Assembly: GCA_028695025.1 (NCBI GenBank) | Contig: JAQVJV010000002.1 | Coordinates: 18,998-82,997 of the forward strand | From: Candidatus Moraniibacteriota bacterium | GTDB taxonomy: Bacteria; Patescibacteriota; Minisyncoccia; Moranbacterales; UBA11712 | DNA: 64,000 nucleotides | Direction of reading: 5' to 3' | In this document: positions 2,151-47,045 of the stretch, in pieces | Position numbering within the stretch: position 1 is the first letter of the stretch | Layout of the letters: every line of letters starts with the position of its first letter | Program-made: the position numbers and the translations under genes | Notes under the pieces: model-generated | What the model saw: the letters and a program-made list of their open reading frames with translations, nothing else | Database searches by the model: none | Told to the model about the DNA's origin: nothing

Positions 2151-2627
2151 ATGTTGCAGAAATACTATAATCTTCAATTTATGCAGCTGAAACTCTATAT
2201 CGAAGAGAACAATTTCATAAAACTCGCGCTTTTTGAGGGAAAAAAGGTGCTTGATAGCCTAGAATGGCAGGATGAGAACGATTTATCTCACAAACTTTTG
2301 GCGAATTTGGATAAAATTTTGAGGAAAAATAAGTTAGGACTTGACCCCGCCCCAATTTTGCGGGAAATAAATTTATCTTCAAAAGATGCAAAGAATAAAA
2401 AGCGAATACAGCTCGACGCTGGTCAAAAAGGCCGGGCTATTCGCCCGACGCGCCGAGCAGGTTTTCAGGGGCAAAATTGGAGCGGGGTTGACAAACTTGA
2501 TAAGTACAATATAATAAGTCAAGTGCCGCGGAAATGGACGACGTACCGGATCGCGGAAATTGCTTTTGAAACGCTAAAAATCGGAGAAAATTCAAGTCCT
2601 ATTGCCAAGAATAAGCAAGCATGTTAG
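2151..2627 (+). CDS. Hypothetical protein (weak TsaB/YeaZ-like N-terminal pattern)
   Basis: ORF track 2145..2627 with a TTG start; the ATG at 2151 is preferred. The N-terminus LKLYIEENNFIKLALFEGKKVLDSLEWQ...LDKIL loosely resembles TsaB. Not reliable. Confidence 0.3.
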   Translation: MLQKYYNLQFMQLKLYIEENNFIKLALFEGKKVLDSLEWQDENDLSHKLLANLDKILRKNKLGLDPAPILREINLSSKDAKNKKRIQLDAGQKGRAIRPTRRAGFQGQNWSGVDKLDKYNIISQVPRKWTTYRIAEIAFETLKIGENSSPIAKNKQAC

Positions 2628-2767
2628 AATCGAATCAAGATACAAATCTTTTCGGGTGAACCAATCAAACCAAGCATAACTAAATATTCTTAACTAAACC
2701 ACTTAGCCAAAACCAACCGCTTCCCAGAATTTGCCGAAGCGGAAATTTGGAGAGTGGCGTGTCTTTT

Positions 2768-5700
2768 ATGTCTCAAGAGGCCAAAACCCTCGGGGTGAAA
2801 GAGTCTTTCAGCCCGCAATCCTCTCTCCATAAGAGGAAATTTTTCAACCGGCGCGCAATGGTGTCCCTTCCGAACTTGATCGAAACGCAAACCATGTCAT
2901 ATGACTGGTTTCTCGCGGAAGGTATGCGTGAACTCCTCGATGAGGTTAACCCAATTGAGGATTTCACCGGAAAAGATTTGGAACTTTCTTTTGGAAAATA
3001 TTATCTTGACGAGCCGAAATACGACGAGAAAACGTCGAAAGAAAAAAATATCTCTTTTGAGGCGCCGCTCCGGTGCGCGGTGAGCCTTCTCAACAAACAG
3101 ACCGGGGAGGTGAAAGAACAGGAAGTTTATCTTGGAGACTTGCCGATCATGACCGACCGGGGAACTTTCATCATCAACGGCGTGGAAAGAGTGGTGGTGA
3201 GCCAGCTTATCCGAAGCCCGGGAGTCTTTTTCACGATGGAATATCAGAAGGGAAAGAAACTTTTCGGGGCGAAAATCATTCCGAACCGCGGAGCTTGGCT
3301 CGAAATGGAAACGGATCTTGACGGAGCCATTTGGGTGAAAATCGACCGCAAGCGAAAAGTGGCGATCACTTCTCTTTTGCGGGCTTTTGGCATTTCCACG
3401 GACGAGCTTTTGGCCAAAACTTTCGCCGATGTGAACAAAGGCGAGACGAATTATCTTGAAGCGACGATTGGGCGCGACGCGGCGAAGACCCAGGGAGATG
3501 GATTCAAGGAGGTTTACAAAAGAATTCGTCCGGGGGATCTCGCCTCCGTTGAAAACGCGCGGCAGATGATCGAATCGATGTTTTTCAATTTTGAGAGATA
3601 CGATTTCGGAAAAGTGGGGCGATACCGCTTGAACCAGCGTTTGGATGTGGATGAGCCGAATGACGAAGCGCATCGAATTTTGCGTCCGGAAGATTTGGTG
3701 CTGATCATCAAGGAAATTATCAATCTTAATAATAATCCGATGGCGGAGCCGGATGATATCGACCACCTTGGAAACCGGCGGGTGCGTTGTGTTGGGGAGC
3801 TTGTGCAAAACAAATTTCGGGCGGGACTTGCGCGCATGGTGCGAAATATCAAAGACCGGATGAGTACTTGCGATCTTGCCATAGTTGTTCCAGGTCAACT
3901 CGTAAACTCGCGTCCGGTGGCGGCGGCAGTCAAGGAATTTTTTGCTTCTTCCCAGCTTTCGCAATTCATGGATCAGGTGAATCCGCTGGCGGAACTTGAA
4001 CACAAGCGGCGGCTTTCCGCGATGGGGCCGGGCGGTCTCACCCGCGAACGGGCAAGCTTTGAAGTGCGCGATGTCCACCATTCCCACTACGGTCGGATTT
4101 GTCCGGTGCAGACGCCGGAAGGCCCGAACATCGGATTGGTGAATCATTTGTCTTGCTACGCGCGCATCAACGAGTTCGGTTTTCTCGAGACTCCGTATCG
4201 AAAAGTTGAGTTGAAGGACGGCAAGCCGTTTGTCACCAAAGATATTGAATATTTGAACGCGACCGTGGAAGATCGGAAAGTTATTGCTCACGCGGATATC
4301 CTGATTGACGACGATGGATATATCCAGGAAGAAAAAATTGAAGCGCGGGTGAAAGGGAAGCCGTCGGTGATTGAAGCGACGAAGGTTGACTATGTCGATG
4401 TTTCGCCGAAACAGTGTATTTCAATTGCCACTTCGCTCATTCCGTTCCTTGAGCACGACGATGCTCACCGGGCTCTCATGGGTTCAAACATGCAGCGCCA
4501 GGCAGTATCTTGCATTCTGCCGGATTCGCCGCTGGTGGGAACGGGGCTTGAAGACAAAGCGGCGGCTGATTCGGGACAGGTGATCCTTGCGCGCGAAGAC
4601 GGGGAAGTGGCGGAAGTGGATGCGGCACATATCACCCTCAAGACGGAAAAAGACGGAAAATCAACGAAGAAAATTTATTGGCTCCAGAATTTCGAACGCT
4701 CGAACGCTTTCACTTGTATGAATCAGATTCCGCGGGTTTCCCGGGGACAAAAAGTGGCGAAAGGCCAGCTTCTCGCGGACGGAGCTTCGACGGACAATGG
4801 GGAATTGGCGCTCGGCCAGAATGTTTTGGTGGCGCTCATGCCTTGGGAGGGGAACAACTTTGAAGACGCTATCATCATTTCTGAACGGTTGCTTCAGGCG
4901 GATCGCTATACTTCCATTCATATTGAAGATTTTTCAGTGGATATCCGTGATACGAAGCTTGGCCCGGAAGTGGTGACGCGAGATATTCCGAATATCGGTG
5001 AAGAGCGGCTCAAAAATCTTGACGATACGGGGATCATCCATATTGGAGCGGAGGTTTCTTCGGGAGATATTCTTGTCGGGAAAATTTCACCGAAAGGGGA
5101 AGGCGATCTCACCCCGGAAGAAAGATTGCTTCGCGCCATCTTCGGAGAAAAATCAAAGGACGTGAAAGATACTTCGCTTTATCTTCCGCACGGGGAACAT
5201 GGAAAAGTGGTGGATATCAAAATCTTTTCGCGCGAGCAGGGCGACAAGCTTCCGGCAGGAGTGATCCAGCAGATTCAGGTGAGTGTGGCGCAGCTTCGCA
5301 AAATTTCAGTGGGCGACAAGCTTGCCGGACGACACGGAAACAAGGGAGTGATTTCGAAAATTGCGGCGGTCGAAGATATGCCTTGCCTTCCGGATGGCCG
5401 ACCGGTGGATATCATACTCAATCCGCTTGGAGTGGCTTCGCGTATGAACATCGGCCAGATTCTTGAGGCGCATCTCGGTTGGGCGGCTTCCGAACTCGGA
5501 TACAAAATCGCAAGTCCCGCCCTTGACGGAGTGAGCGAACAGAACATAAAAGAGGAACTTAAGAAAGCGGGCCTTCCTGAAGACGGAAAGATGCGGCTTA
5601 TGAACGGAAAGACAGGAGAGTACTTCGACGAAAAAACCATGGTGGGATATATGTATATCATGAAGCTCAACCACTTAGTGGAAGACAAAATTCACATGCG

Positions 5701-6052
5701 TTCTATCGGACCGTACTCGCTCATCACCCAGCAGCCTCTCGGCGGAAAAGCCCAATTCGGAGGCCAGCGCTTCGGGGAAATGGAAGTGTGGGCGCTCGAA
5801 GGATACGGCAGTGCGCATACGCTTCAGGAAATGATGACAATCAAATCGGACGACCAGCTCGGCCGCTCGAAAGCCTATGAATCGATCATCAAGGGCGAAC
5901 GGATCAAGAGTCCGAACATCCCGGCTTCTTTCAACGTGTTAGTAAACGAACTCAAGGGGCTTTGCCTCAATATCGAATCGGTCGGCGAGAAAACGGAAGT
6001 TGACGAGGAAGAGAAAACCGGATCGGAGAGAAAGGATGACGGAGAGGAATAA
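2768..6052 (+). CDS. rpoB: DNA-directed RNA polymerase subunit beta
   Basis: Motifs [69 protein letters not shown]. The ORF track starts at TTG 2747. ATG 2768 with GGAGAG 13 nt upstream is preferred. Confidence 0.97.
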
Positions 6053-6156: not shown

Positions 6157-9100
6157 ATGAATCAACAAAATGCCACCAAAGTGAGCGACTTCGACGCAAT
6201 CCGATTGAAGCTCGCGAGTCCCGACGATATCCTCAATTGGTCCCACGGCGAGGTGACAAAGCCGGAGACAATCAACTATCGCACCCAAAGATACGAGCGC
6301 GACGGTCTTTTTTGCGAAAAAATTTTCGGACCAGCCAAGGACTGGGAATGTTACTGCGGAAAATACAAAAAAATCCGCTATAAAGGCATCATTTGCGACA
6401 AGTGCGGCGTGGAAGTAACACGCTCGATCGTCCGGCGGGAACGGCTGGGGCATATCAAGCTCGCGGTGCCGGTTTCTCATATTTGGTTTTTGCGGGGCGT
6501 GCCTTCCAAAATCGGCTTGTCGCTCGGCATGTCGGCGCAGGAATTGGAAAAGGTGGTTTACTTTGCGAGCTATATTGTCATGGAAGTGGATGAGGATGCC
6601 CGCAAGGAAGCGCTTGACCGGCTGGAAGCGGAATACAAAGGCAAGCAGAAGAAAAGCGAATCAGAAAAAGAGAATGAAGAACTCAAGGGCGCCTATCAAG
6701 CCGGCCGGGAAGAACTCAAGAGCCTTCGCCGGTTCCAGATCCTTTCCGAAGTGGAATATTTCAATTTGTCGCTCAAATATGGCCATGTTTTCAAGGCGGG
6801 AATCGGAGCGGAAGCAGTCCGGCGTATTTTGGAAGGGCTCAATATTGAAGAGGAGATCGCCCGGATCAACAAAGAGATTGAAGACGACAAAATTTCTGAC
6901 AAGAAAAAACTTTTAAAACAACTCAAATTGTTCCAGGGGTTCAGCCAGGCCGGCCTTCGTCCCGAATGGATGCTCCCAACCGTGATCCCGGTCATTCCGC
7001 CGGATCTTCGCCCGATGGTCCAGCTTGACGGGGGACGGTTTGCGACTTCGGATCTCAACGATCTCTACCGTCGTATCATCAACCGCAACAACCGGTTGAG
7101 AAAACTGATCGAGATCGGCGCGCCGGAAGTGATTTCCCGGAACGAAAAAAGAATGCTCCAAGAAGCGGTGGATGCGCTGTTTGATAACTCTGCCCGTCGG
7201 GGACAAACTTCGGTGGCGGCTTCAACTGGACAGAAGCGGGCCCTTCGGTCGCTGGCTGATATGCTCAAAGGAAAGCAAGGACGTTTCCGCCAGAACCTTC
7301 TTGGAAAGCGGGTGGATTATTCCGGTCGGAGCGTGATTGTGGTCGGACCGAAACTGAAACTCCATCAGTGCGGTTTGCCGAAGAAAATGGCTCTTGAACT
7401 TTTCAAACCTTTCATCATCAACAAGCTGATCGAAAGGGAATATGCCCACAACGTGCGAAGCGCTGGAAAAATGGTGGAATTCGAAGCGGAAGAAGCTTAT
7501 GAAATTCTTGACGATATCATCGAACATCACTATGTGCTTTTGAACCGCGCCCCGACCCTGCACCGTTTGAGTATCCAGGCTTTCCAGCCGGTGTTCATCG
7601 AAGGAAAAGCGATCCAGATCCATCCGATGGTATGTTCGGCTTTCAACGCGGACTTCGACGGAGACCAGATGGCGGTCCATGTGCCGCTCACCGAGGAAGC
7701 GCGCACCGAAGCGGGAAACATAATGCTTTCGGCGAAAAACCTTTTGAAGCCGGCGAGCGGAGACCCGATCACGATCCCGTCGCAGGACATGGTGCTCGGT
7801 TGTTACTATATGACCCATATCATGCCGGGCCGCACCGGAGAAGGAAAAATTTTTGCAACACCCGAAGAAGCGAAACTGGCCTATCATTTCGGAAGCGTTG
7901 ATCTCAAAGCGGAAATCGAAGTGGATTTTGGAACGGAAAGAAGGAAAACTTCTGTGGGCCGGATTCTTTTCAATGAAATCATGCCGGTGGAAATCGGTTT
8001 CGTGAATGAAGAAATGGACAAAGGAAAATTGAGAAAGATTGTGGCGCAGTGCCTTGAGATATCTGGACGGGACGAAACGGCCAAATTCGTGGACGAACTC
8101 AAAAATTTGGCATTCTCGCTTGTCACCCGTTCCGGAATCAGCTGGGGGATGGATGACCTTGCTGTTCCGGAAGAAAAGAAAAAGATCATGGAAGACGCTG
8201 AAGATCGGGTGGAGCTCATCAACAAGCAATATGGCATGGGGCTTCTCACCGACCGGGAAAGAAAAAGCCAGGTGATCGAGATTTGGAGCGAAGCGAAGAA
8301 TAAAATCACGGAAGCGGTGCGCGCTTCTCTCGACAAAGAAGGCCCGGTATATTCCATGGTATATTCCAAAGCGCGCGGCACGGAAGCGGTGGTGGTGCAG
8401 ATGACCGGAATGAAAGGGCTGGTGGCCGGTCCGACCGGGGAAACGATCGAACTGCCGATCAAATCATCGTTCAAAGAAGGTTTCAACGTCCTTGAATATT
8501 TCATTGCGACCCACGGAGCCCGGAAAGGTATGGCGGACACCGCCCTTCGGACGGCGACGGCCGGATACCTGACGCGGCGGCTTGTGGATGTGGCGCAGGA
8601 TGTCGTGGTTCGGGAAGTCGATTGCGGCGACGATCGGGGAAATTTCATGTATCGCGAAGACTCGGACGTGGTCGGCATCAGCTTTGCTTCCCGCATCACC
8701 GGACGCTATTTGATCGAAGATGTGGCTGATCCCAAGACGAAAAAAGCTATCCTCAAGGCGGGAGATCTCATCACGAAAGAAAAAGCGGAAGAGATTGAAA
8801 AAGCGAAAGTGGAAAAAATAAAGATCCGGTCTGTCGTCACTTGCCAGAGCCGGCGCGGAATATGCCAGAAATGCTATGGAATGGACCTGGGCCGGAACGA
8901 ACTTGTGCAGATCGGACAAGCGGTGGGAATCGTGGCGGCGCAGGCTATCGGAGAGCCGGGAACCCAGCTCACGATGCGTACTTTCCACATCGGAGGCGTC
9001 GCCGGAACGGATATCACCCAGGGACTTCCGCGCGTGGATGAAATTTTTGAATCCCGCCCGCCGAAAGGAGAAGCCGCCATTTCCGAAGTGGACGGGCAGG

Positions 9101-15029: not shown

Positions 15030-17321
15030 ATGGGCAGAAAAAAGAAAAAAGACAAAGAAAAAAACGGGAACGGCGGCGGAAATGGAAATGGCGGCGGGCT
15101 ATCGGCCCTCAAAAGCGACACAAAGCGGTCCATCATCGCTGTTTTTCTGATTGCCTTTGCACTGCTTGCCGTTTTCAGCCTTTTCGGCGGAGCGGGAACT
15201 TTTGGAAAATATCTCGACAAAGGTTTGGGTCTTGCACTTGGAATCGGGCGGTATATTTTGCCGGTGCTTCTTATTGCGGTCGGGTTCCTTTATTTCCGCC
15301 GGGACGAGGAGGCGTATTACGTCTTTGTGGCGGTGGGCTTTTTTCTGTTCCTTGCGAGCATCCTTGGCACGGTCCATATTTTCTATCCTCTTGAAAAAAT
15401 GGTAGCGGCGGCAAAAGCCGGGCAGGGCGGCGGATTTTTGGGGGCGGCGCTTGCCTATCCCGCGCTCAAGTTTTTCGGCTTTTCGGCTAGCCTTATTGTT
15501 TTGGTAGCGGTGGCTCTTGCTTCGCTTCTTCTCGCGCTCAATATGCCGCTTCGGGCGCTTTTCCGGCCGATGGAATGGATGAAATGGAAGAAGGAGAATG
15601 ATGAGGAAGATGAACCGGCTGATGCCAAAGCCGCGGCGAGCAAAGAAAAAAAAGGGTCGGTATATATTGAAGAAAAACCTTCAACAGCGGCAAGAATCAG
15701 CGAGCTTCTCAAGCGAAAAACGGAAAAACCGGATGTTCCCGAAAGAAAAGCGCCGATGGTTGACCGGCAAAGGACGATCGCCGGATGGAAATTGCCGCCG
15801 CTTGACCTTCTTGAACGCTCGAGCGGGAAAGCGAAGCCCGGCGACATTGAAGCCAACGCCAAAACCATCCAGGAGACTTTTAAAAATTTCGGGATCGAAG
15901 TGGAGATCGGGGATATCAGCGTCGGTCCGTCCGTAACACAGTATTGTTTTAAGCCGGCGGCGGGGATCCGGCTTTCGAAGATCACCGGCCTCAACAATAA
16001 TCTGTCTCTCGCGCTCGCGGCGCATCCGATCCGGATCGAGGCGCCGATTCCCGGCAAGTCTCTTATTGGAATCGAAGTGCCGAACAAGACGTCGACGATG
16101 GTGCGCCTGCGCGATCTCATCGAAAGCGATGAATTTGCGGAGAGAAAATCGAATCTCACGCTTTGTCTTGGAAAAGACGTGGCCGGGAACTATATCTTGG
16201 GGGATCTCACTGAAATGCCGCACTTGATGATTGCCGGAGCGACCGGAACCGGAAAAAGTGTGGGGATCAATACGATCATTACGTCACTTCTCTATCAAAA
16301 CTCACCGGATGATTTGAAGCTCATTTTGGTTGACCCGAAGCGGGTGGAACTCACGGGATACAACGGCATTCCGCATCTTCTGACTCCGACGGTAGTAGAG
16401 AATGGGAAGGTGGCGAATGCTCTCAAGTGGGCGGTGGGAGAAATGGAGCGACGCTACAAAACGCTCCAGGAAGCCGGATCGAGGGATATCCATTCGTATA
16501 ACGGAAAAATCAGGGTCGGCCAGAAGAAAGAAATCATCGACGAAGAAACCGGAGAGGTGGTTGGCGAAGAGGAAGTGAAACGTTTGCCGTTCATTGTCAT
16601 CATCATCGACGAGCTGGCCGATATCATGGCCTCCCACTCGAAAGAAGTGGAGGCGGCGATCGTGCGCCTCGCGCAGATGGCGCGGGCGGTGGGAATCCAT
16701 CTCATTGTTTCGACCCAGCGGCCGTCGGTGGAAGTTCTCACCGGCCTCATCAAGGCCAACATCACGACGCGCATCGCTTTCCAGGTCGCGACACAGATCG
16801 ATTCGCGGACGATCCTTGATATGTCGGGAGCGGAAAAATTGCTCGGGAACGGGGATATGCTTTTCCTTTCCGCCCGGTCGCCCAAACCGCGGCGCATCCA
16901 AGGCGTTTTTGTTTCGGAATCGGAAGTGAAGCGGGTGGTGAAATCGATCAAGGGCCAATTGGAAGGAGAGGTGGAATATGACGATGAAGTGACGGCTCCC
17001 CAGCGGGTGAGTCTTGGCGGAAAAATGACGGGCGGGACGGGCGAAGAAGACGGGGATGATCTCTATGAAGATGCCAAAGACACGGTGGTGAAATCCGGGA
17101 AAGCCTCGGCCTCGCTTCTTCAGCGACGCCTTCGGGTGGGATATGCCCGGGCGGCGCGGCTTCTTGACCTTTTGGAAGCCAACGGCGTGATCGGGCCGGC
17201 GGACGGATCGAAAGCCCGGGAAATATTGGTTGATGGGCCGATGGCGCCTGCGTCTTCAGCCGAAGTTGAGTACGAGGACGAATTGGCCGACCAGTCAAAA
17301 AGGGACCGTTGGCAGATGTGA
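15030..17321 (+). CDS. ftsK: DNA translocase FtsK/SpoIIIE
   Basis: N-terminal Gly/Asn-rich tail and TM helices. Walker A GATGTGKSV. RLAQMARAVGIHLIVSTQRPS. C-terminal gamma (winged-helix) domain. Confidence 0.95.
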   Translation: MGRKKKKDKEKNGNGGGNGNGGGLSALKSDTKRSIIAVFLIAFALLAVFSLFGGAGTFGKYLDKGLGLALGIGRYILPVLLIAVGFLYFRRDEEAYYVFVAVGFFLFLASILGTVHIFYPLEKMVAAAKAGQGGGFLGAALAYPALKFFGFSASLIVLVAVALASLLLALNMPLRALFRPMEWMKWKKENDEEDEPADAKAAASKEKKGSVYIEEKPSTAARISELLKRKTEKPDVPERKAPMVDRQRTIAGWKLPPLDLLERSSGKAKPGDIEANAKTIQETFKNFGIEVEIGDISVGPSVTQYCFKPAAGIRLSKITGLNNNLSLALAAHPIRIEAPIPGKSLIGIEVPNKTSTMVRLRDLIESDEFAERKSNLTLCLGKDVAGNYILGDLTEMPHLMIAGATGTGKSVGINTIITSLLYQNSPDDLKLILVDPKRVELTGYNGIPHLLTPTVVENGKVANALKWAVGEMERRYKTLQEAGSRDIHSYNGKIRVGQKKEIIDEETGEVVGEEEVKRLPFIVIIIDELADIMASHSKEVEAAIVRLAQMARAVGIHLIVSTQRPSVEVLTGLIKANITTRIAFQVATQIDSRTILDMSGAEKLLGNGDMLFLSARSPKPRRIQGVFVSESEVKRVVKSIKGQLEGEVEYDDEVTAPQRVSLGGKMTGGTGEEDGDDLYEDAKDTVVKSGKASASLLQRRLRVGYARAARLLDLLEANGVIGPADGSKAREILVDGPMAPASSAEVEYEDELADQSKRDRWQM

Positions 17322-21945: not shown

Positions 21946-22995
21946 TTAAATCTTGAACTCAATCACATCACCATCTTGGACAATATAATCTTTTCCTTCC
22001 GTGCGGAGCGTTCCCAATTCGCGGGCGCTGGCCCACGATCCGGCCTCGAGCAACTTTTCCCAGCTGATCACATCCGCGCGGATGAATTTTTCTTCGAAAT
22101 CGGTGTGGATGGCGCTTCCGGCCTGTGGGGCGCTTGAATTTTTCTTCACTGTCCAGGCGCGGGTTTCGTCGGGACCGGTGGTGAGGAAAGTGATGAGCCC
22201 TAAAATTTCATAGGCTTTGAGAATCAACTGATCAAGATTTGATTTCATGCCAAGTTCTTTGGCTTCCTCCACCGACATTTCGGAAAGTTCTTCTTCTATT
22301 TTGACATCGATAGGAACAGTATTTTCGAGAAGATTCAATCTTCGGTCTCCGAAGGTTGAACCTTCAGAAATATTCGTATTCAAGACAAACAACATCGGCT
22401 TCCAGGTGAGAAGCTGTATGTCGCGGACAAGCGAAAAATCCTCTTCTGATAATTTCAGTTCGCTGGCCAGTTTCCCCCCATCCAAAATATTTTTGATATT
22501 TTTCACAATTTCAAGCGCTTTTGCGGCAACTTTATCTTGTCCGCGGGCTTCTTTTTCAAGTCTCGCTATTCTTTTTTGCACGGTTTCAATGTCGGCGAGA
22601 ATGAGTTCGGTGTTGATCACTTCGACATCGCTCTCGGGATCAATCTTATTGTGAACGTGGGTGATGTCGCTATTCTCGAATCCGCGAACGACTTGCGCGA
22701 TTGCGTCCACCTCCCGAATATGCGAAAGGAATTTGTTTCCCAAGCCCTCGCCTTCGGCCGCGCCGCGGACCAGTCCCGCGATGTCGACAAACTCAACCAC
22801 CGTCGGGACGATTTTCGCCGAGCCTGACATTTTCGCCAGTTTTTCGAGGCGCTCATCGGGCACGCGAACAACACCGACGTTCGGTTCGATGGTGCAAAAA
22901 GGATAATTGGCAATATCCACCGGATTTTTGGTGAGAGCTTTGAACAATGTCGATTTCCCGACATTTGGAAGCCCTACGATTCCGACCCGAAGCAT
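21946..22995 (-). CDS. ychF: Ribosome-binding ATPase YchF
   Basis: GIVGLPNVGKSTLFKALT G1 motif. NTEL...TGPDETRAWTV TGS domain at the C-terminus. 349 aa. Confidence 0.92.
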   Translation of the reverse strand: MLRVGIVGLPNVGKSTLFKALTKNPVDIANYPFCTIEPNVGVVRVPDERLEKLAKMSGSAKIVPTVVEFVDIAGLVRGAAEGEGLGNKFLSHIREVDAIAQVVRGFENSDITHVHNKIDPESDVEVINTELILADIETVQKRIARLEKEARGQDKVAAKALEIVKNIKNILDGGKLASELKLSEEDFSLVRDIQLLTWKPMLFVLNTNISEGSTFGDRRLNLLENTVPIDVKIEEELSEMSVEEAKELGMKSNLDQLILKAYEILGLITFLTTGPDETRAWTVKKNSSAPQAGSAIHTDFEEKFIRADVISWEKLLEAGSWASARELGTLRTEGKDYIVQDGDVIEFKI

Positions 22996-23046
22996 AGATT
23001 TATTTGAAATTGAAATTGTTTATTGCTAAACTATTATTGCAATAAA
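22982..23046. repeat. 65-bp perfect direct repeat copy 1 (includes the real ychF start codon and upstream region)
   Basis: CCGACCCGAAGCATAGATTTATTTGAAATTGAAATTGTTTATTGCTAAACTATTATTGCAATAAA, identical to 25406-25470. Confidence 0.95.
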
Positions 23047-23207
23047 ATTAACTAAAATCAAGATTTTGACAAAACCGAAGAAAAGGGCGGCGGCAAGGAT
23101 AATATCGCCACAGTCAAACTCATTGAGGTTCTAGATAATGCTGATTTATATATCGAAGAAAAATCTTCTAGTCTAGAGCCATTGAAAATATTTTACAGGA
23201 AATAGAT

Positions 23208-23669
23208 TTGCTCTTGAAGAAGAAAGATAATCTGGCGGGCAAGTATTTGTTTGGTGCCTTTCAAAATGTGCGCAAGCAATTGATGCGGGCATTGATGTTT
23301 AAAAACCTCATCACGGAAGGGCATATCTCAAATTTGGCAAGATTCTCAACGATTGCCAAACTTATTCACCAAGCAAAACAGATTGAATGAATTGGATCGG
23401 GCCAAGCGGATTTTCTTGTTGAGACAACAAAGGGCCACTTTCTCGTGGTAGAGGTGAAATCAAACCGGGAAAAAGAAGGCTACGAAAAGAACAAGGAGCA
23501 ATACAAAGGAAAAGCCGAGCAACTTTTCAGCGAGGTGTTTGCCAAAGAAATCGGTTTCAAAGAATTTCAACAAGCCAACAAAAACTTTGAATATCGCATC
23601 ATCTTTGATGCTTCGCTCCAGAAAAGGCAGCAGGAGCTTCTGCAGGGCATTGAAAAATTTGAAAAATAA
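23208..23669 (+). pseudogene. PD-(D/E)xK (YraN/UPF0102-like) nuclease-fold ORF interrupted by an in-frame TGA at 23388-23390
   Basis: The two ORF-track pieces 23208-23390 and 23445-23669 are in one frame. ...LIHQAKQIE*IGSGQADFLVETTKGHFLVVEVKSNREKEG shows the D...EVK signature spanning the stop. Confidence 0.4.
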
Positions 23670-23700
23670 ATCAAGAAATCAAAATTGAAAAATAAAATCC

Positions 23701-23748
23701 GCCAGTCTGCGATGTTCTGCAAACTGGCGGTTCTTTTTACGCCTTTGA
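23701..23748. terminator. Bidirectional terminator hairpin, copy 1 of an identical 48-bp repeat
   Basis: AATAAAATCCGCCAGTCTGCGATGTTCTGCAAACTGGCGGTTCTTTTT. 12-bp stem with one mismatch, followed by a T-tail. Confidence 0.7.
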
Positions 23749-23757
23749 ACGCTCGGT

Positions 23758-24618
23758 TTAGGCCGTTTGTTGCCGCATAGCGTCGAACTGCGGCCAGGGG
23801 TCAAACTGCGAACCGATGCCGGGGATGATGTGCTCTTGCCTGCCCTCACCCATATAGCACCGAACTTTGGCGTTGCCTTCCGCATCCAGGTCAAAGCGGT
23901 CAACGATTTTCTTGCCGCCGCATCCACAGGGGCAGTCAACTTCAATCTGTATGACCGGGAAAAGAGGCCTCCCGTCTTCCCCGATGGGATATTTTGGGAT
24001 AGAACCCTCACGGCGACCGAAGGAATTGAAGTTTTCGTGGTTGATATGTTTGGCCATCTTCTGGAGGTCAGCCATAGGGTAGTTGGGAAATTCATCGCCG
24101 GGAAGGTCTGCCCCCATAATGCGGTTCATCAGCTCAATGAGCCTGTGGCTGCCCGCAGTGCGAGCATCGTGATTGAAAAAGGAGTAGAGGGCCTTGCCTT
24201 CCTGAACCAGGGAGAGGTCTTTCGGACGGGAGAAAATCATTTCCGCCCCGCCGTAGTCCATAACTATCTGGTAAATGAAGGTTTTGTCCGCGGGGCAACG
24301 CTTCCGGATTTTGTTGACTAGGTTTTGGACGATGTCCTTTTCTTGGGCTACCGACCAGACCATAATGAGGAAAACTGCCACGGCTTCTTCGGCTTCCCGG
24401 ATGCGGCGGATGAGCCCGCCCTTCAATTTGCCGATTTTCCGTATGAGGCCTTTCCTTTTTTTAAGGCCAACATAGGAGACAACTTGCGGGTGAAAGCTGT
24501 TGAAGCCGCGATACATCCAGAACCCCGACATAAGCTCCTCTATATCAGAGCCGTCGTAGGTTCGTTGCCCGATAAAAACGGGCAGAGCCGAAACCTCTTC
24601 TTTTTTGAAAGTCCTCAT
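23758..24618 (-). CDS. Hypothetical protein with C-terminal CPCGCGG zinc-ribbon-like motif (main cargo ORF)
   Basis: 286 aa, in GC-rich DNA. ...IQIEVDCPCGCGGKKIVDRFDLDAEGNAKVRCYMGEG. No family recognised. Confidence 0.5.
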   Translation of the reverse strand: MRTFKKEEVSALPVFIGQRTYDGSDIEELMSGFWMYRGFNSFHPQVVSYVGLKKRKGLIRKIGKLKGGLIRRIREAEEAVAVFLIMVWSVAQEKDIVQNLVNKIRKRCPADKTFIYQIVMDYGGAEMIFSRPKDLSLVQEGKALYSFFNHDARTAGSHRLIELMNRIMGADLPGDEFPNYPMADLQKMAKHINHENFNSFGRREGSIPKYPIGEDGRPLFPVIQIEVDCPCGCGGKKIVDRFDLDAEGNAKVRCYMGEGRQEHIIPGIGSQFDPWPQFDAMRQQTA

Positions 24619-24735
24619 CCTGCTTCCTCCTCAAAGCTGAATTTTACGCTGAAACATCGCATTCTCTGTTAGGAAAAGCGATAAATCATTAAAGCAATAA
24701 ATGTCCCTGATGTCAATCTGGGCCATTTTTCAGTA

Positions 24736-24783
24736 AATAAAATCCGCCAGTCTGCGATGTTCTGCAAACTGGCGGTTCTTTTT
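24736..24783. terminator. Terminator hairpin, copy 2 of the identical 48-bp repeat
   Basis: Identical to 23701-23748. Confidence 0.7.
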
Positions 24784-24919
24784 GTGATTTTAGTCGATAG
24801 TCAAGCTATCGAGAACCCAACTTTCCAACGCTTTGTTTGGAAACTCCTTGATTTCCTCGCGGTCTTCGCATTCGGATATTCGGGCCTTGTTGGCTACGAT
24901 AACTTGCATTGGAGTATAT

Positions 24920-25180
24920 TCACTCATTACCACGCTCTCGGTAAGCACGCAGCAGGTGTTTGAGCTTCGTGCATTCCGCCTTGAACCAGCGAGGGTCGAG
25001 CCAAGTGCGGTTTAGGCCAAGAATATCGTCGATGTATTCCCGGGCCTCTTCAGGCGTGGTATCGTCCTCTTCCCGCAATTCCCAGATGAGTGCTTTGATA
25101 TGAGGCAAGTCATCTTTCTTTGGGAATAGCTTCAAATGCTTGCAGATCGGCATCAGAGTGAAAACCGGATGTATCGGCAT
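24920..25180 (-). CDS. Hypothetical small protein
   Basis: 86-aa charged ORF. Its TGA overlaps, in ATGAGTGA, the start of a further 45-aa ORF (24790-24927, minus). Confidence 0.35.
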   Translation of the reverse strand: MPIHPVFTLMPICKHLKLFPKKDDLPHIKALIWELREEDDTTPEEAREYIDDILGLNRTWLDPRWFKAECTKLKHLLRAYRERGNE

Positions 25181-25269
25181 AATTTCCCCCTTGATTGTAA
25201 AATGGCTTCAGAATAGGCTACCAACAAAAAGTTTTAGTGTCAATAATCGTTATTCAAACGGCACTGACC

Positions 25270-25350
25270 GCATAATTCTTCCTTTTTAATTTCAAGCCAC
25301 GATTATTCGCTCATACTGCGGCGGTGGCAGTTTTATCGTGAAAGCGAAAG
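25270..25350. repeat. ~75-bp imperfect direct repeat, copy A
   Basis: ...CACGATTATTCGCTCATACTGCGGCGGTGGCAGTTTTATCGTGAAAG, about 80% identical to 26630-26705. Confidence 0.6.
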
Positions 25351-25405
25351 GGATGATTTTTTCAGAATTGCCGTTTGTGAAATGTCTGATAGCGTTCGCT
25401 CCGTG

Positions 25406-25470
25406 CCGACCCGAAGCATAGATTTATTTGAAATTGAAATTGTTTATTGCTAAACTATTATTGCAATAAA
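25406..25470. repeat. 65-bp perfect direct repeat copy 2 (carries a dead-end duplicate of the first 14 nt of ychF)
   Basis: Identical to 22982-23046. Similarity continues degenerately for ~30 bp (TAAAATCAAGATTTT present in both). Confidence 0.95.
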
Positions 25471-25658
25471 GCGGTTAAAAATCAAGATTTTATAAAAAAT
25501 GGACACATACTGGTAATTTCTAACGAAAATCATATGGGCATCAAAGTTGAGTTCAATCCCGATTTGGCACTCCGTGACATTTCGGGAAAAAATTGACAAT
25601 CAGCTGGATATTCTGTAATTTTTCACAAAAGCAATTTTCTCTTGAGAGGGGGAGAAAT

Positions 25659-25814
25659 ATGACCGGCGAACAGATAAAAAAGGCTATGGACGAGTATAGA
25701 GCGTTCTTTGAAAAAATGGGAGCTCCTAAAATCGATTATCCTCACGAAAAACTTCTTGACGTTCCCGTGCGGGGTTTAGCTCATTGCCACGGGATGCTGG
25801 ATAAAATGGAATAA
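25659..25814 (+). CDS. Hypothetical small protein followed by an in-frame TAA and a further 38-codon open frame
   Basis: RBS GAGAGGGGGAG, then MTGEQIKKAMDEYRAFFEKMG...MLDKME*FLKEGRIEKAMRWLCFIQGCLWSNGYYTIGQLADHKRGE. Possibly a nonsense-disrupted gene. Confidence 0.3.
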   Translation: MTGEQIKKAMDEYRAFFEKMGAPKIDYPHEKLLDVPVRGLAHCHGMLDKME

Positions 25815-25937
25815 TTTTTGAAAGAGGGCCGCATTGAAAAGGCGATGCGGTGGCTCTGCTTCATTCAGGGATGCCTCTGGTCAAACGGCTATTATACCAT
25901 TGGCCAATTGGCCGACCATAAACGAGGGGAGTGAAAG

Positions 25938-26315
25938 ATGACATATTACGAGGGATACGAAGTGAAAACCTGCACGCCAGCCGACTTTCAAGACACGATT
26001 TGCGACTGCCTGTGCGACGTTATGGTTTCCGAAGCCGATGAAAAACCGGGATGCATCGTAATCCCGACCAATCTCAACTTGCGGTATTCGGAAAAAGGCG
26101 GATTGGGCCTCGCCATTGCTGGCTTCTATGTGGCCATCCCCAGTTTTGAAAATCCGCCGAAACGGGAAGAAACCATCAAAATTATCCGGGAGGCATACGA
26201 GACTATGGTTCAGTCAATCGCGGCTCTTCCGATGAGAATTGGAGAAATACGGGAAATCCCAATTGTTCCGGACGCGGAATACAACCTCGAAATTGAACTT
26301 CATCATCTGCAATAA
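25938..26315 (+). CDS. Hypothetical protein
   Basis: 125-aa ORF. No recognised motifs. Confidence 0.4.
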   Translation: MTYYEGYEVKTCTPADFQDTICDCLCDVMVSEADEKPGCIVIPTNLNLRYSEKGGLGLAIAGFYVAIPSFENPPKREETIKIIREAYETMVQSIAALPMRIGEIREIPIVPDAEYNLEIELHHLQ

Positions 26316-26337
26316 AGACCAAGGGAGGGCTCTGGAG

Positions 26338-26538
26338 ATGAGAAAATCAGAATTGAAGCCGGGAATGAAGGTCAAGAACAAAATTTCCGGCCGGGTCGGC
26401 GAAGTCAAGGGCCTTCCCGATGGCGAATTGGGTTGTGCCGATTGGTGCGTGTCAATTCGTGCTCGCACGATGTCGGGCAAGCACAAAGGGAAGTGGGATT
26501 ATCCCATCTGGAACGTAGCAAGCCTCGAAGCTGCCTAA
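26338..26538 (+). CDS. Hypothetical small protein
   Basis: 66 aa, MRKSELKPGMKVKNKISGRVGEVKGL..., reminiscent of KOW/SH3-like small proteins. Confidence 0.35.
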   Translation: MRKSELKPGMKVKNKISGRVGEVKGLPDGELGCADWCVSIRARTMSGKHKGKWDYPIWNVASLEAA

Positions 26539-26629
26539 ATTTCGCCGGAGGCCACAAATGGCCAATAAAACAAGACCTCAAGTCTCGCGACAAGGGGTCT
26601 TTTCTTTTATTCAATCGGGACAGAATTTA

Positions 26630-26705
26630 TTATCCTGCCTTTTTCATTGCAGGACACGATTATCCGCTCGTAGCGAGATGGGGGCAGTTTTATCGTGAAG
26701 GTGGC
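26630..26705. repeat. ~75-bp imperfect direct repeat, copy B
   Basis: ...CACGATTATCCGCTCGTAGCGAGATGGGGGCAGTTTTATCGTGAAGG. Confidence 0.6.
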
Positions 26706-26750
26706 TGAAAAATCTTTGCGCGATACTTGCGTGATTTTTGGACTTCAAAA

Positions 26751-26786
26751 AAGGCGGATACAAAATGTGTCCGCCTTGATTTTTTA
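26751..26786 (+). terminator. Rho-independent terminator
   Basis: AAGGCGGATACAAAATGTGTCCGCCTT followed by GATTTTTT. Confidence 0.6.
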
Positions 26787-26825
26787 ACCTCACCCCGTCC
26801 CTCTCCTTATCAAGGGAGAGGGAGT
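26787..26825. repeat. Palindromic repeat element copy (ACCTCACCCCGTCCCTCTCCTT-ATC-AAGGGAGAGGGAG)
   Basis: Same family. Lies immediately 3' of manC on the minus strand. Confidence 0.8.
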
Positions 26826-27901
26826 TACAAATTCTTAATCTTGCCTTCGCCTTCGAGTTTTTTGACGACGTCGGAAACGAGTTGGGATTTGTTTTTGTCG
26901 GCGATGAGGATCGCGTCGGGCGTGTCGACTATTATCAAATCTTTTACGCCGATAGTGGTGATCAGTTTTTCCGATCCATAGACCAAGAGATTCTCGCTAT
27001 CGAAATCAAGGTGTTCGCCTTTTACGTTTACCAAATGTTCCTTGTTATTTCCGACCAAAGTTTCCTTGAGGGCGGTCCAGCTTCCGACATCGCTCCATTC
27101 CAACTCCAAGGGAATAACAGCGACGTTTTTTTCGTTTTCCAGAATGGCATAGTCGATGCTGTTTTTGTCCATTTCGGGAAATTCTTTTGCGAGCACTTTG
27201 GCAAAATTATTATTTTTCACGCTGTCGCGGATTTTCACAAGCCGTGCATAATCATCCGGGACATAGCTTTTGAATTTTTCGATGATCGTTTTGGTTTTCC
27301 AAAGGAACATTCCGCTGTTCCAGAAGTAGTTTTCTGATTCGAGGTATTTCTTGGCTGTTTCAAAATCCGGTTTTTCCACGAATTTTTCGGCGTGGAAAAT
27401 TTCCAAACCGTTTTTTTCGAGAGAGCCGTCCTTTTGGATATAGCCGTATCCCGTTTCCGGCGCGCTGGGCGTGATGCCGAATGTCAAAAGATATTCTTCA
27501 TGATTTTTCAAAAATTCCACGCCTTTTCGGATAGCTTCAAGAAGAACTTCCGGATTTTGGATAAAATGGTCGGCGGGGAAAACTCCCATGATTTCTTCTT
27601 CGTCATTTGCGGCAATCACGGCGGCGGCGAGAGCCACAGAGGGTGCGGTGTTTCGCCCTACCGGTTCAGCCAAGATATTCTCTTTTGGAAATTCAAGGAT
27701 TTCTTTTTCCACTTCGCTCACATATTCCTGGTTGGTGGCGACGTATATATCTTCCGGTTCGGCGATTTTCCGCAGGCGCAGGTAGGTTTCCTGAAGCATG
27801 GTTTTGTCGGAGGTGAGGCACTGGAATTGTTTCGGTTTGTTTTTCCGGCTCACGGGCCAAAGGCGGGTTCCTTTTCCGCCGGCCATGATGACGAGTTTCA
27901 T
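26825..27901 (-). CDS. manC: Mannose-1-phosphate guanylyltransferase
   Basis: MKLVIMAGGKGTRLWPVSRKNKPKQF and the nucleotidyl-transferase fold. The ORF track extends to 27937 across a tandem GTGATCAGTGA repeat. Confidence 0.85.
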   Translation of the reverse strand: MKLVIMAGGKGTRLWPVSRKNKPKQFQCLTSDKTMLQETYLRLRKIAEPEDIYVATNQEYVSEVEKEILEFPKENILAEPVGRNTAPSVALAAAVIAANDEEEIMGVFPADHFIQNPEVLLEAIRKGVEFLKNHEEYLLTFGITPSAPETGYGYIQKDGSLEKNGLEIFHAEKFVEKPDFETAKKYLESENYFWNSGMFLWKTKTIIEKFKSYVPDDYARLVKIRDSVKNNNFAKVLAKEFPEMDKNSIDYAILENEKNVAVIPLELEWSDVGSWTALKETLVGNNKEHLVNVKGEHLDFDSENLLVYGSEKLITTIGVKDLIIVDTPDAILIADKNKSQLVSDVVKKLEGEGKIKNL

Positions 27902-28020: not shown

Positions 28021-29367
28021 ATGGGTGAAATTAATCCGAAAATTTTCAAGGCCTATGATATCCGGGGGGTTTATCCGGAGGAAATAAACGAGGAAGCGGC
28101 GTATAGCATCGGCCGGGCTGCGGTCCAATATCTCGATGCCAAAAGGGTCGCGGTGGGCCGCGACATCAGGGAATCGAGCTCGGCGCTTTTTGAAAATCTG
28201 GCGAAAGGCATTACCGACCAGGGGGCGGATGTGTATGACTTGGGGCTTGCTTCCACGCCGATGGTTTATTTCGCTTCGGGGAAATTGGGGGTTGACGGCG
28301 CGATTGCTCTCACGGCTTCCCATAATCCGGCGGAATATAACGGAATGAAAATTTGCCGGGCGGAAGCGGTTCCGGTCGGAGAAAATAGCGGCTTGTTTGA
28401 TGTCCGGGATCTTGCGATTGCCGGAAAATTTCCAGAAGCTTCTCGAAAAGGGGAAATCATAAACAAAGAAGAAATCAAAAAAGAATACGTCGAATATTTT
28501 TCCGGGTTTGCCAAGCTGGGCGGGCGGAAGTTCAAGATTGTGATTGATTTTGCGAACGCGATGGGAATTTTGGAAAAAGAAATATACGGAAAATTTCCCG
28601 AAAATCTTGAAATAACGCCGCTCTATGAAAATTTTGACGGAAAATTTCCCAATCATGAGGCCAATCCCTTGAAGACGGAAACGCTTGCCGAACTTCAGGC
28701 GAAAGTGGTTGGAACGAATGCCGATTTGGGAATTGCTTATGACGGGGATGCCGATCGGGTCGGCTTTGTCGATGAGACGGGGCAAATCGTGCCGATGGAT
28801 CTCGTCACCGGGCTCATTGCCAAAATTGTCCTTGAAAAAAAACCGGGCGCGAAAATTTTCTACGACCTTCGTTCTTCAAAATCGGTGAAGGAATATATTG
28901 AAGAAAACGGAGGAGTGGCGCTTGAGTGTCCGGTGGGGCACGCGAATATCAAGAAAATCATGCGTAACAAAGGCGGCGTTTTTGCCGGCGAGCTTTCGGG
29001 GCACTATTATTTCCAAGAAAATTTCATGGCGGAGGCCTCGACGCTTGCGGCGCTTATGCTTTTGGGCGTGATGGCGGAAACGGGCGGGAAAATGTCGGAT
29101 CTTGTGAGAGGCATCAAGCGTTATTTCCACTCGGGGGAAATTAATTCCGAAGTGGCAGATAAAGATGCGGTTATTGCGGCGCTCAAGGAAAAATATTCGG
29201 ACGGAAAAATTTCAGAACTTGACGGCGTGAAAATCGAATATCCCGATTGGTGGTTTAATGTCCGGCCGTCGAACACCGAGCCGGTCTTGCGCCTCAATTT
29301 GGAAGCGGACACGGAGAAGTTGATGGAAGAGAAAAGGGATGAAGTGCTGGGATTGATCCGGGGGTGA
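28021..29367 (+). CDS. Phosphomannomutase/phosphoglucomutase
   Basis: Active-site TASHNPAEYNGMKI, metal-binding DGDADR. 448 aa. Confidence 0.9.
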   Translation: MGEINPKIFKAYDIRGVYPEEINEEAAYSIGRAAVQYLDAKRVAVGRDIRESSSALFENLAKGITDQGADVYDLGLASTPMVYFASGKLGVDGAIALTASHNPAEYNGMKICRAEAVPVGENSGLFDVRDLAIAGKFPEASRKGEIINKEEIKKEYVEYFSGFAKLGGRKFKIVIDFANAMGILEKEIYGKFPENLEITPLYENFDGKFPNHEANPLKTETLAELQAKVVGTNADLGIAYDGDADRVGFVDETGQIVPMDLVTGLIAKIVLEKKPGAKIFYDLRSSKSVKEYIEENGGVALECPVGHANIKKIMRNKGGVFAGELSGHYYFQENFMAEASTLAALMLLGVMAETGGKMSDLVRGIKRYFHSGEINSEVADKDAVIAALKEKYSDGKISELDGVKIEYPDWWFNVRPSNTEPVLRLNLEADTEKLMEEKRDEVLGLIRG

Positions 29368-45305: not shown

Positions 45306-47045
45306 ATGCGAGTTGACAATGAGAGGCTAAAAAGTTTCGCGCTGGATTCCGGCATTATGTCTGAAGAACAGCTGAACCAGGCTTCGGAGGAAGCGGAGAG
45401 CGAAGGGAAAAATCTTGGCGATGTCCTGGTTAAAAAGAAGATAATTACTTCCGACCAGATGCGGCAGCTGGTTTCCTATATTCTGGGAATTCCTTTTGTG
45501 AATATTGAAAAAGAAATTATTCCGAAAGAAATACTGCAGATTATTCCCGAAGCCATCGCCAAAAAATATAAAGTGGTGGCTTTCAAAAAAACCGGAACAG
45601 AGCTCAAGGTGGCTATGCTCAATCCGGATGATATTCAGACAGTTGATTTTATCCGGAAAAAGACCGGCCTCAAAGTTTCACCCTGCGTGACAACGGAACT
45701 GGGGATTGAAAACGCGCTCAAGCAATACGAGCAGAGCCTCAAGGCGGAGTTCGGAGATATCATCGAAAAAAACGCGCCGGGAGTTTCGCAGGATGACTCC
45801 TTGGAAAAAGTGGCGCAGGAATTGCCGGTGATCCGCATCGTGGAAGCGCTTCTCAAGCATGCTATCCTTCAGGATGCGAGCGATATCCATATAGAACCGG
45901 ATGAAAAAGAAGTGCGTGTCCGCTACCGCATCGACGGGATGCTCCATGACGCGATGAATTTGCCGCGCACGGTCCTTGCCGGAATTGTCGCCCGCATAAA
46001 GATTCTTTCCAACCTCAAGCTGGACGAACACCGCCTGCCCCAGGACGGACGGTTCAAAATCGAACAAGACGGGAGAAGGACCGCTTTCCGGGTTTCCATC
46101 TTGCCGGTCTATTCCGGAGAAAAAATCGTGATGCGCCTCTTGGACGAATCTTCCAAGGGCCTTACGCTTGAAGCGATGGGCCTTTGGGGCGCGGCGCTTG
46201 AAAAAATACACCAAGCCATCCAAAAGCCGAACGGCATGATTCTCGTCACCGGCCCGACCGGATCGGGAAAAACGACTACGCTTTATACTATAATGGACAT
46301 CCTCAATACTCCGAAGGTGAATATTTCCACTGTGGAAGACCCGATCGAGTACAAGATGTCGAGGATCAACCAGACGCAAGTCAATCCGCAGATAGGACTT
46401 ACTTTTTCCCAAGGTTTGCGGGCGCTCCTTCGCCAGGATCCGGATATCATCATGGTAGGGGAAATTCGGGACAAAGAAACGATGGAAATTGCCGTCCACG
46501 CGGCGATGACCGGCCACTTGGTGCTTTCCACGCTGCATACCAACGACGCGCCGGGAACGATACCCCGTCTCATTGACATGGGCGCGGAGCCGTTCCTCAT
46601 CGCTTCGACGGTGAATGTGGTGATGGGGCAACGGCTGGTGAGAAAGCTTTGCAGCGATTGCCGCCAGAGCTACAAGCTTGACAAGGCCCTTTTGGATTCT
46701 TTGAGCAAAGAAATTGATCTTGATCAGCTTTTGGATATTGCCGCAAAAAGCAACTTCATAGACAAGGAAGTTGCCGTGTCCCGGGATTGGTCAAAAATTG
46801 ATTTTTTTCACTCGGTTGGTTGCGAGCGCTGTTCCCAGGAAGGTTATAAAGGGCGGGTGGGAATATATGAAGTGATGGAAGTTGACGAGGAACTGGCCAA
46901 AATGATCAGTGCGCGCGCGGACAGCAATGAGATAGGGAAAAAAGCCAAAGAAAAAGGGATGATGAATATGTTTGAGGATGGGATGATAAAAGCCATTCAA
47001 GGAGTTACTTCCATTGAAGAAATTCTACGGGTTACGAAGAATTGA
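45306..47045 (+). CDS. pilB: Type IV pilus assembly ATPase PilB/GspE
   Basis: N-terminal GSPII_E_N domain. Walker A GPTGSGKTTTLY. Tetracysteine CSDCRQSYK...CERCSQEGYKGRVGIYEVM. Confidence 0.93.
   Translation: MRVDNERLKSFALDSGIMSEEQLNQASEEAESEGKNLGDVLVKKKIITSDQMRQLVSYILGIPFVNIEKEIIPKEILQIIPEAIAKKYKVVAFKKTGTELKVAMLNPDDIQTVDFIRKKTGLKVSPCVTTELGIENALKQYEQSLKAEFGDIIEKNAPGVSQDDSLEKVAQELPVIRIVEALLKHAILQDASDIHIEPDEKEVRVRYRIDGMLHDAMNLPRTVLAGIVARIKILSNLKLDEHRLPQDGRFKIEQDGRRTAFRVSILPVYSGEKIVMRLLDESSKGLTLEAMGLWGAALEKIHQAIQKPNGMILVTGPTGSGKTTTLYTIMDILNTPKVNISTVEDPIEYKMSRINQTQVNPQIGLTFSQGLRALLRQDPDIIMVGEIRDKETMEIAVHAAMTGHLVLSTLHTNDAPGTIPRLIDMGAEPFLIASTVNVVMGQRLVRKLCSDCRQSYKLDKALLDSLSKEIDLDQLLDIAAKSNFIDKEVAVSRDWSKIDFFHSVGCERCSQEGYKGRVGIYEVMEVDEELAKMISARADSNEIGKKAKEKGMMNMFEDGMIKAIQGVTSIEEILRVTKN

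Follow-up and report, generated by a model that had tools for sequence, protein, structure and literature searches.

The locus at 23208–23669 of the window (the whole 64-kb stretch of Candidatus Moranbacteria DNA analyzed here) is, as judged from sequence homology and with a high degree of probability, the dead 3′ stump of a restriction-enzyme gene rather than a gene that a stop codon has split. The real lesion appears to be the loss of about 760 codons at the 5′ end of the gene. An in-frame TGA within the locus had been described in the initial annotation as either a nonsense mutation or a recoded codon in a nuclease gene, and the main value of the present analysis is as a correction: an in-frame TGA in a nuclease gene from the CPR could pass as evidence for an alternative code or for recoding, and the apparent recoding here would be a chance match of frame beside a dead restriction-gene stump. 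The locus is an ordinary pseudogene remnant in a variable island.

Homology to the nuclease family begins downstream of the TGA

Both open reading frames of the locus are on the forward strand. The upstream ORF (23208–23390, TTG start, 60 aa) lies in an open frame that follows a stop at 23166–23168 (stop-to-stop ORF 23169–23387), and the downstream ORF (23445–23669, GTG start, 74 aa) is in the same frame, with the TGA at 23388–23390 as the sole intervening stop; the coordinates, common frame and lone TGA that had been reported are thus all borne out by the sequence. For two adjacent ORFs the chance of a common frame is one in three, so the coincidence is without weight alone, and there is no other tie between the two ORFs. 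A D...EVK core had been proposed to span the stop in the read-through product (...QAKQIE*IGSGQADFLVETTKGHFLVVEVKS...), but the Asp codon (23409–23411) and the E-V-K codons (23451–23459) are all on the 3′ side of the TGA.

Comparison of the read-through product with its homologues, which had been recommended as a check on the split gene, argues against it. Searching 5.8 billion protein clusters returned 25 matches with 59–89% identity, every one of them confined to the C-terminal half and none crossing the TGA. The alignment of each relative opens at 'DFLVETTKG', the Asp of which is encoded at 23409; immediately before this point the relatives read '...HNDFYFEYYSPE.KRIARYFP', and the window has the unrelated '...AKLIHQAKQIE*IGSGQA'. 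The same boundary is present in the DNA: blastn matches to L001–L008, L091, L107 and L108 all begin at 23409, a start common to nine loci of differing context, and ungapped identity to L001 in a fixed register, taken in 30-nt windows, is 10–37% to the left of 23409 and 73–77% to the right.

The remnant defined by this breakpoint (23409–23669, forward strand; peptide 'VEVKSNREKEGYEK...') is a putative 5′-truncated type III-like Res gene, consisting of its last 86 codons plus the TAA at 23667–23669 and retaining the Asp and E-x-K residues. It aligns to residues 762–847 of an 847-aa protein, P0030, with 65% identity (E 2e-32), leaving the rest of P0030 unmatched. When the window was translated in six frames and searched, filters off, with an HMM built from 34 full-length proteins, the only match was to 23391–23666 (E 1e-11, HMM positions 792–859), and tblastn with four longer homologues against the whole 64-kb window gave a sole match at 23406–23693. 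The alignment to P0030 and the profile match are significant and collinear, confirming homology of the remnant to the C-terminus of type III-like Res proteins. Neither component of an intact system accompanies it: there is no N-terminal SF2/ResIII helicase in the same ORF and no adjacent Mod DNA methyltransferase, and the neighboring ORFs (23758–24618, 24920–25180 and 25641–26538) match no Pfam family.

Two other arrangements were considered and rejected. A gene split by an insertion, with its N-terminal part displaced within the window, is not supported, as the tblastn search with the four longer homologues found no N-terminal part of the res gene elsewhere in the 64 kb. The full-length Res HMM failed to match the upstream ORF even when E values up to 50 were admitted; therefore, the locus is not a res gene in which an internal in-frame deletion has fused the 5′ end to the 3′ end.

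The sequence to the left of the breakpoint is an orphan stretch of 362 nt (23047–23408, GC about 37%), located between the ychF promoter repeat and the remnant, and it holds both the upstream ORF and the TGA, which is 18 nt upstream of the breakpoint. None of the 5.8 billion clusters contains a protein homologue of it, and comparison with 1.23 Mb of related loci by blastn and tblastx likewise returned nothing. In L091, res is preceded by a small gene, which was considered as a counterpart of the upstream ORF and discarded, all-frame tblastx revealing no similarity. The codon-usage score of the upstream ORF is intermediate and does not clearly mark it as non-coding, on a scale where any stop-free frame scores upward-biased by construction.

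These data bear directly on the proposal that a small stand-alone PD-(D/E)xK gene spanning 23208–23669 was recently interrupted by a nonsense mutation that turned a sense codon into TGA. The common frame of the two ORFs is in its favor, as is an alignment of Pfam VRR_NUC that spans the stop (read-through residues 52–99), which is sub-threshold (E 0.021, 15.3 bits vs 23.8). However, both protein and DNA homology begin downstream of the TGA, no homologue reaches upstream of 23409, relatives that are 80–89% identical downstream are unrelated upstream, the conserved Glu helix and strands expected in the upstream ORF are absent, and the true parent is ∼847 aa in length; the proposal is hardly credible.

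The stump is better described by a deletion or rearrangement at 23408/23409 that would have eliminated ∼760 5′ codons and placed unrelated AT-rich DNA directly before codon ∼762. The TGA would then belong to this unrelated DNA, its frame agreeing with that of the stump only by coincidence. Youth is the probable reason why the stump has persisted: among the strongly conserved positions just one change was seen, Arg to His in 'KGR'. Its persistence may also reflect the abutting bidirectional terminator, which would end the convergent gene for a 286-aa protein.

The TGA as a stop codon

In some other CPR lineages, the Gracilibacteria and Absconditabacteria, UGA encodes Gly (code 25). The host of the locus, Candidatus Moranbacteria, likewise belongs to the CPR/Patescibacteria, and the locus is within horizontally acquired cargo, so both facts favor a UGA that is read as an amino acid, either by code 4 or 25 inherited from a donor or phage or by selenocysteine insertion or programmed read-through. 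Unlike the code 25 lineages, this genome ends genes at TGA and has none in frame. Among 42 long ORFs, 25 stop at TAA, 10 at TGA and 7 at TAG, and no internal in-frame TGA is present in the long ORFs, including those of 1100–1190 aa. Pfam profiles run to their end just before a TGA in FtsK (15030–17321), the PilB-like T2SSE ATPase (45306–47045) and phosphomannomutase (28021–29367), in agreement with the initial annotation, which had assigned standard code 11 to the core genes. Six tRNAs were found, none of which is a UGA-reading tRNA (anticodon UCA), a suppressor or a Sec tRNA. Furthermore, the other stop-interrupted ORF of the variable region is broken by TAA and not TGA, and upstream of the TGA there is nothing homologous to read through to or from. 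Neither reassignment nor recoding of UGA is found, and any such reading has a negligible probability; on these genomic grounds recoding is considered excluded, and TGA is a true stop in this Candidatus Moranbacteria genome. Phage origin also finds no backing in the databases: in IMG/VR the remnant and the 286-aa gene gave just local matches of 30–54%, with nothing closely related, and GenBank phages gave one weak match.

The parent gene and its nuclease domain

To place the remnant in its family, the homologue profile was compared with 1.84 billion representatives. The best match was P0030 (847 aa), with the profile on residues 626–846 (E 4e-104), and the same search returned dozens of proteins of 830–910 aa with the nuclease domain at the C-terminus. 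The Pfam ResIII helicase domain is present in P0030 and P0036, and sub-threshold matches to TnsA-like_N were found in P0035 and P0036. In the plasmid relatives L089 and L090, a Res-like gene of ∼880 aa lies directly downstream of a site-specific DNA methyltransferase, the plasmid relatives being annotated as 'DEAD/DEAH box helicase family protein' or 'TnsA endonuclease N-terminal domain-containing protein'. In L110 the order is a large serine recombinase (Resolvase/Recombinase), a 393-aa gene, N6_N4_Mtase, the ResIII part and the nuclease part. The domains of the full-length relatives, together with their methyltransferase and recombinase context, therefore indicate that the family is a mobile type III-like Mod-Res module. 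The parent of the remnant is predicted to be a type III-like Res protein of ∼847 aa, in which a ResIII/SF2 helicase at the N-terminus is followed by a TnsA-like PD-(D/E)xK nuclease at the C-terminus.

Among the nearest known systems are the Res subunits of type III restriction-modification enzymes (Pfam ResIII PF04851, for example EcoP15I Res), which resemble P0030 and P0036 in their N-terminal ResIII and C-terminal nuclease, and resemble the full-length relatives in L110, L089 and L090 in following a DNA methyltransferase gene; the window differs in having just the last 86 codons, without helicase and without Mod. The family is distant from characterized enzymes: its sequence finds no counterpart in the PDB, and PADLOC contains no model for it. 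Against NCBIfam BPTD_3080, for which the cut-off is 800, it scores just 82.6 bits. It differs from the N-terminal domain of Tn7 TnsA (Pfam PF08722) in its score, which at 24 bits is below the Pfam cut-off of 26.5, and in its setting, as the TnsB/TnsC partners are absent and the context is one of restriction-modification, not transposition. The placement of the downstream piece in the restriction-endonuclease-like (PD-(D/E)xK) family in the initial annotation was well founded, but its more specific label, YraN-like, finds no particular support: the nearest Pfam families are TnsA-like_N, NERD, VRR_NUC, DUF1064 and Hjc, all sub-threshold, and there is no match to Pfam UPF0102 at E ≤ 10. YraN/UPF0102 proteins belong to the same broad superfamily and have a similar D...E-x-K spacing, but they are stand-alone proteins of ∼120 aa, whereas the parent of the remnant is an 847-aa helicase-nuclease.

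An AlphaFold model of the nuclease domain built from a 31-sequence alignment has a pLDDT of 88 and a pTM of 0.83 (a shallow 15-sequence alignment gave a pLDDT of 46). The residues invariant in the family are E31, on the first helix, P82, D83, F84 and E97, and K99 of the E-x-K motif is conserved in at least 90%. The remnant starts exactly at the Asp, D83, and retains the D, E and K residues; E31 is missing and Ala replaces Pro82. Accordingly incomplete are the catalytic set E ... (P)D ... (D/E)-x-K and the alpha-beta-beta-beta-alpha-beta core of the PD-(D/E)xK fold, of which the Glu-bearing helix and three beta strands have been lost along with the helicase. Without the Glu helix, the three strands, the helicase and the Mod partner, the remnant therefore cannot be a working restriction nuclease, and the fragment is incapable of forming the nuclease domain.

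Decay of the res gene in other contigs

Damaged copies of the res gene, present in many metagenome contigs, were surveyed with the 3′ end as query, so that only copies retaining the 3′ end are findable. Those detected differ in the nature of the damage. The 5′ end is cut next to an IS3 transposase in L005 and next to a serine-recombinase gene in L108 and L111; the copy in L001, truncated near residue 583, is preceded by 870 nt of non-coding DNA; P0023 and P0024 are both cut at 'EVFAKE'; P0022 has lost the E-x-K strand through an internal deletion; and P0009 contains a scrambled patch. In L110 a Mod-Res operon occupies 2241–5711 and its res gene is split by a TAA at 4893–4895. Thus, L110 is a genuine stop-split res gene of the kind envisaged for the window, but it is from another genome and the stop is TAA. 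These copies portray a mobile type III-like restriction-modification module that has been lost repeatedly in Moranbacteria-like genomes, the expected behavior for such modules.

The last 36 codons were compared between six truncated copies (the window, L092, L109, L001, L107 and L108), revealing 10–16 synonymous and 2–5 nonsynonymous codon differences. The simplest reading of this synonymous excess is that selected, mobile, intact alleles have seeded fresh, independent and recent truncations, which would leave the signature of selection on stumps that are themselves dead. Alternatively, a short protein comprising the C-terminal helix-strand-helix of Res may be expressed and selected, the candidates being the 74-aa GTG ORF at 23445–23669 and a 50-aa ATG ORF in L092. 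The strength of the synonymous excess is consistent with a selected product, and the remnant is about 93% identical to L092 in amino acid sequence, vs about 82–85% for the intact 286-aa gene, at similar DNA identity. Remnants in several contexts lie within ORFs that have start codons (P0023, P0024 and the L092 ORF), three breakpoints are clustered within about 15 nt (23531–23547), and in the window the GTG at 23445 and a promoter-like site at 23010–23037 (forward strand, in the 65-nt repeat described below) could permit expression of the remnant. Against this, the query favors 3′-retaining copies and thereby introduces an ascertainment bias, intact or near-intact mobile copies (P0030 and L110) can give rise to remnants that show this substitution pattern, the remnant ORFs have mutually unrelated N-terminal extensions, and half of the fold core is missing. 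A selected mini-protein is consequently unlikely, and we favor a dead stump seeded from intact alleles.

The clustering of breakpoints is an observation in its own right. The three independent truncations in L092, L109 and P0024 fall at positions equivalent to 23531–23547 of the window in different contexts, and could mark a recombination hot spot or reflect selection.

The variable island beside ychF

The remnant is in a variable island next to ychF (21946–22995, reverse strand, start codon 22995–22993), the product of which is 82% identical to YchF of Moraniibacteriota MAGs, and the earlier description of the locus as decaying cargo is upheld. A perfect 65-nt direct repeat encloses the cargo. 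Its left copy (22982–23046) combines 14 nt from the start of ychF with the 51 nt that precede them, and its right copy is at 25406–25470. In L010 the site occurs once, immediately adjoining the flank that here starts at 25471, followed by a small-gene cluster (25637–26685) at 83% identity; therefore, 23047–25405 is an insertion relative to L010. No structured RNA was detected in 22800–27000, where no Rfam match came near threshold.

Downstream of the remnant is the first copy (23690–23738) of a perfect 49-nt direct repeat, which forms a bidirectional intrinsic-terminator hairpin common to the remnant and the convergent 286-aa gene; the second copy is at 24735–24783, a spacing of 1045 nt, and the pair flanks the 286-aa gene. 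Its identity to the hairpin of L092 and L106 is 98%, and an exact search for it in JGI metagenomes returned one contig, of the L092 type. The 286-aa hypothetical gene (23758–24618, reverse strand; 100% identical to NCBI PHF35_00785, from a Candidatus Moranbacteria MAG) encodes an orphan protein with a CxCxC...C motif, with just 3 other relatives in the 5.8 billion clusters and no Pfam or PHROG family.

A second lineage, represented by L092, L093, L094 and L106, has the order ychF, remnant, hairpin and 286-aa-family gene, and the block 23547–24318 (remnant, hairpin and 286-aa gene), which travels as a unit in both lineages, is 84% identical to these four contigs. In L092 and L106 the remnant consists of the last 40 codons and is about 30 nt from ychF. 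This arrangement is relevant to the prospect that strain variants have been mis-assembled at 23408/23409 and perhaps also at the 65-nt and 49-nt repeats. The source is a MAG contig, and assemblers can switch paths where perfect repeats, here 49 and 65 nt long, coincide with block boundaries. However, four contigs from four samples of an independent lineage have the same gene order, and the repeat lengths differ such that no single k-mer size is implicated, making mis-assembly very improbable.

On the right of the island, a second in-frame stop had been noted at 25815; the TAA is real, but it lies at 25812–25814, 3 nt from the reported position. It interrupts a gene at 25659–25934, where L010 has GAA and an intact 91-aa ORF of PHROG family 7775. 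Here a gene is indeed split by a stop, and the comparison with L010 identifies the TAA as a true G-to-T nonsense mutation. At the TGA, by comparison, there is no homology left of 23409 to be split.

The sole mildly unusual feature nearby is the duplication of the ychF start together with a conserved end element of ∼160 nt. In the window and in L016, cargo (2.4 and 6.4 kb, respectively) is enclosed between ychF and a second copy of its own start, the duplicated start being 65 nt in the window and about 17 nt in L016. In both (the L016 positions concerned being 1479–1653 and 7995–8011), the duplicated start is fused after 'GTCGG' (codon 5) to the ∼160-nt end element (window 25250–25410), which opens a small ORF, M(S)L(K/R)VGTERT. 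The same 'GTCGG' fusion is found in L109 (190–359), where the element adjoins a res remnant, and ychF and any cargo are off the contig. Neither cargo contains a visible recombinase; that of L016 differs from the one in the window and comprises an ABC transporter, Fic and TrmB-like regulators. A tentative and rather doubtful idea is that the remnant is decayed cargo of an unrecognized Moranbacteria module which inserts site-specifically at codon 5 of ychF; if true, it would constitute an integrase-less or trans-mobilized island system in CPR bacteria.

Several minor observations concern the same region. The ychF-start duplication and the ∼160-nt element may be an att-like insertion hot spot. 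The small ORF MLRVGTERTLSDISQTAILKKSSLSLSR (window 25419–25333, reverse strand) begins at the duplicated ychF ATG, and it and the matching MSLKVGTERT... ORF in L109 and L016 may specify a leader peptide or a small protein, or may have arisen accidentally with the duplication. A partial second copy of the ∼160-nt element, 76% identical, occurs at 26600–26777 of the window and at 1634–1719 of L010 (nhmmer E 1e-36), at the far end of the small-gene cluster and just before the terminator of the manC-side flank. L010 itself (DATGZC010000068.1) was deposited as 'Candidatus Bathyarchaeia archaeon', but its ychF is 80% identical to that of the window and its genes are syntenic and Moranbacteria-like; it is probably mis-binned.
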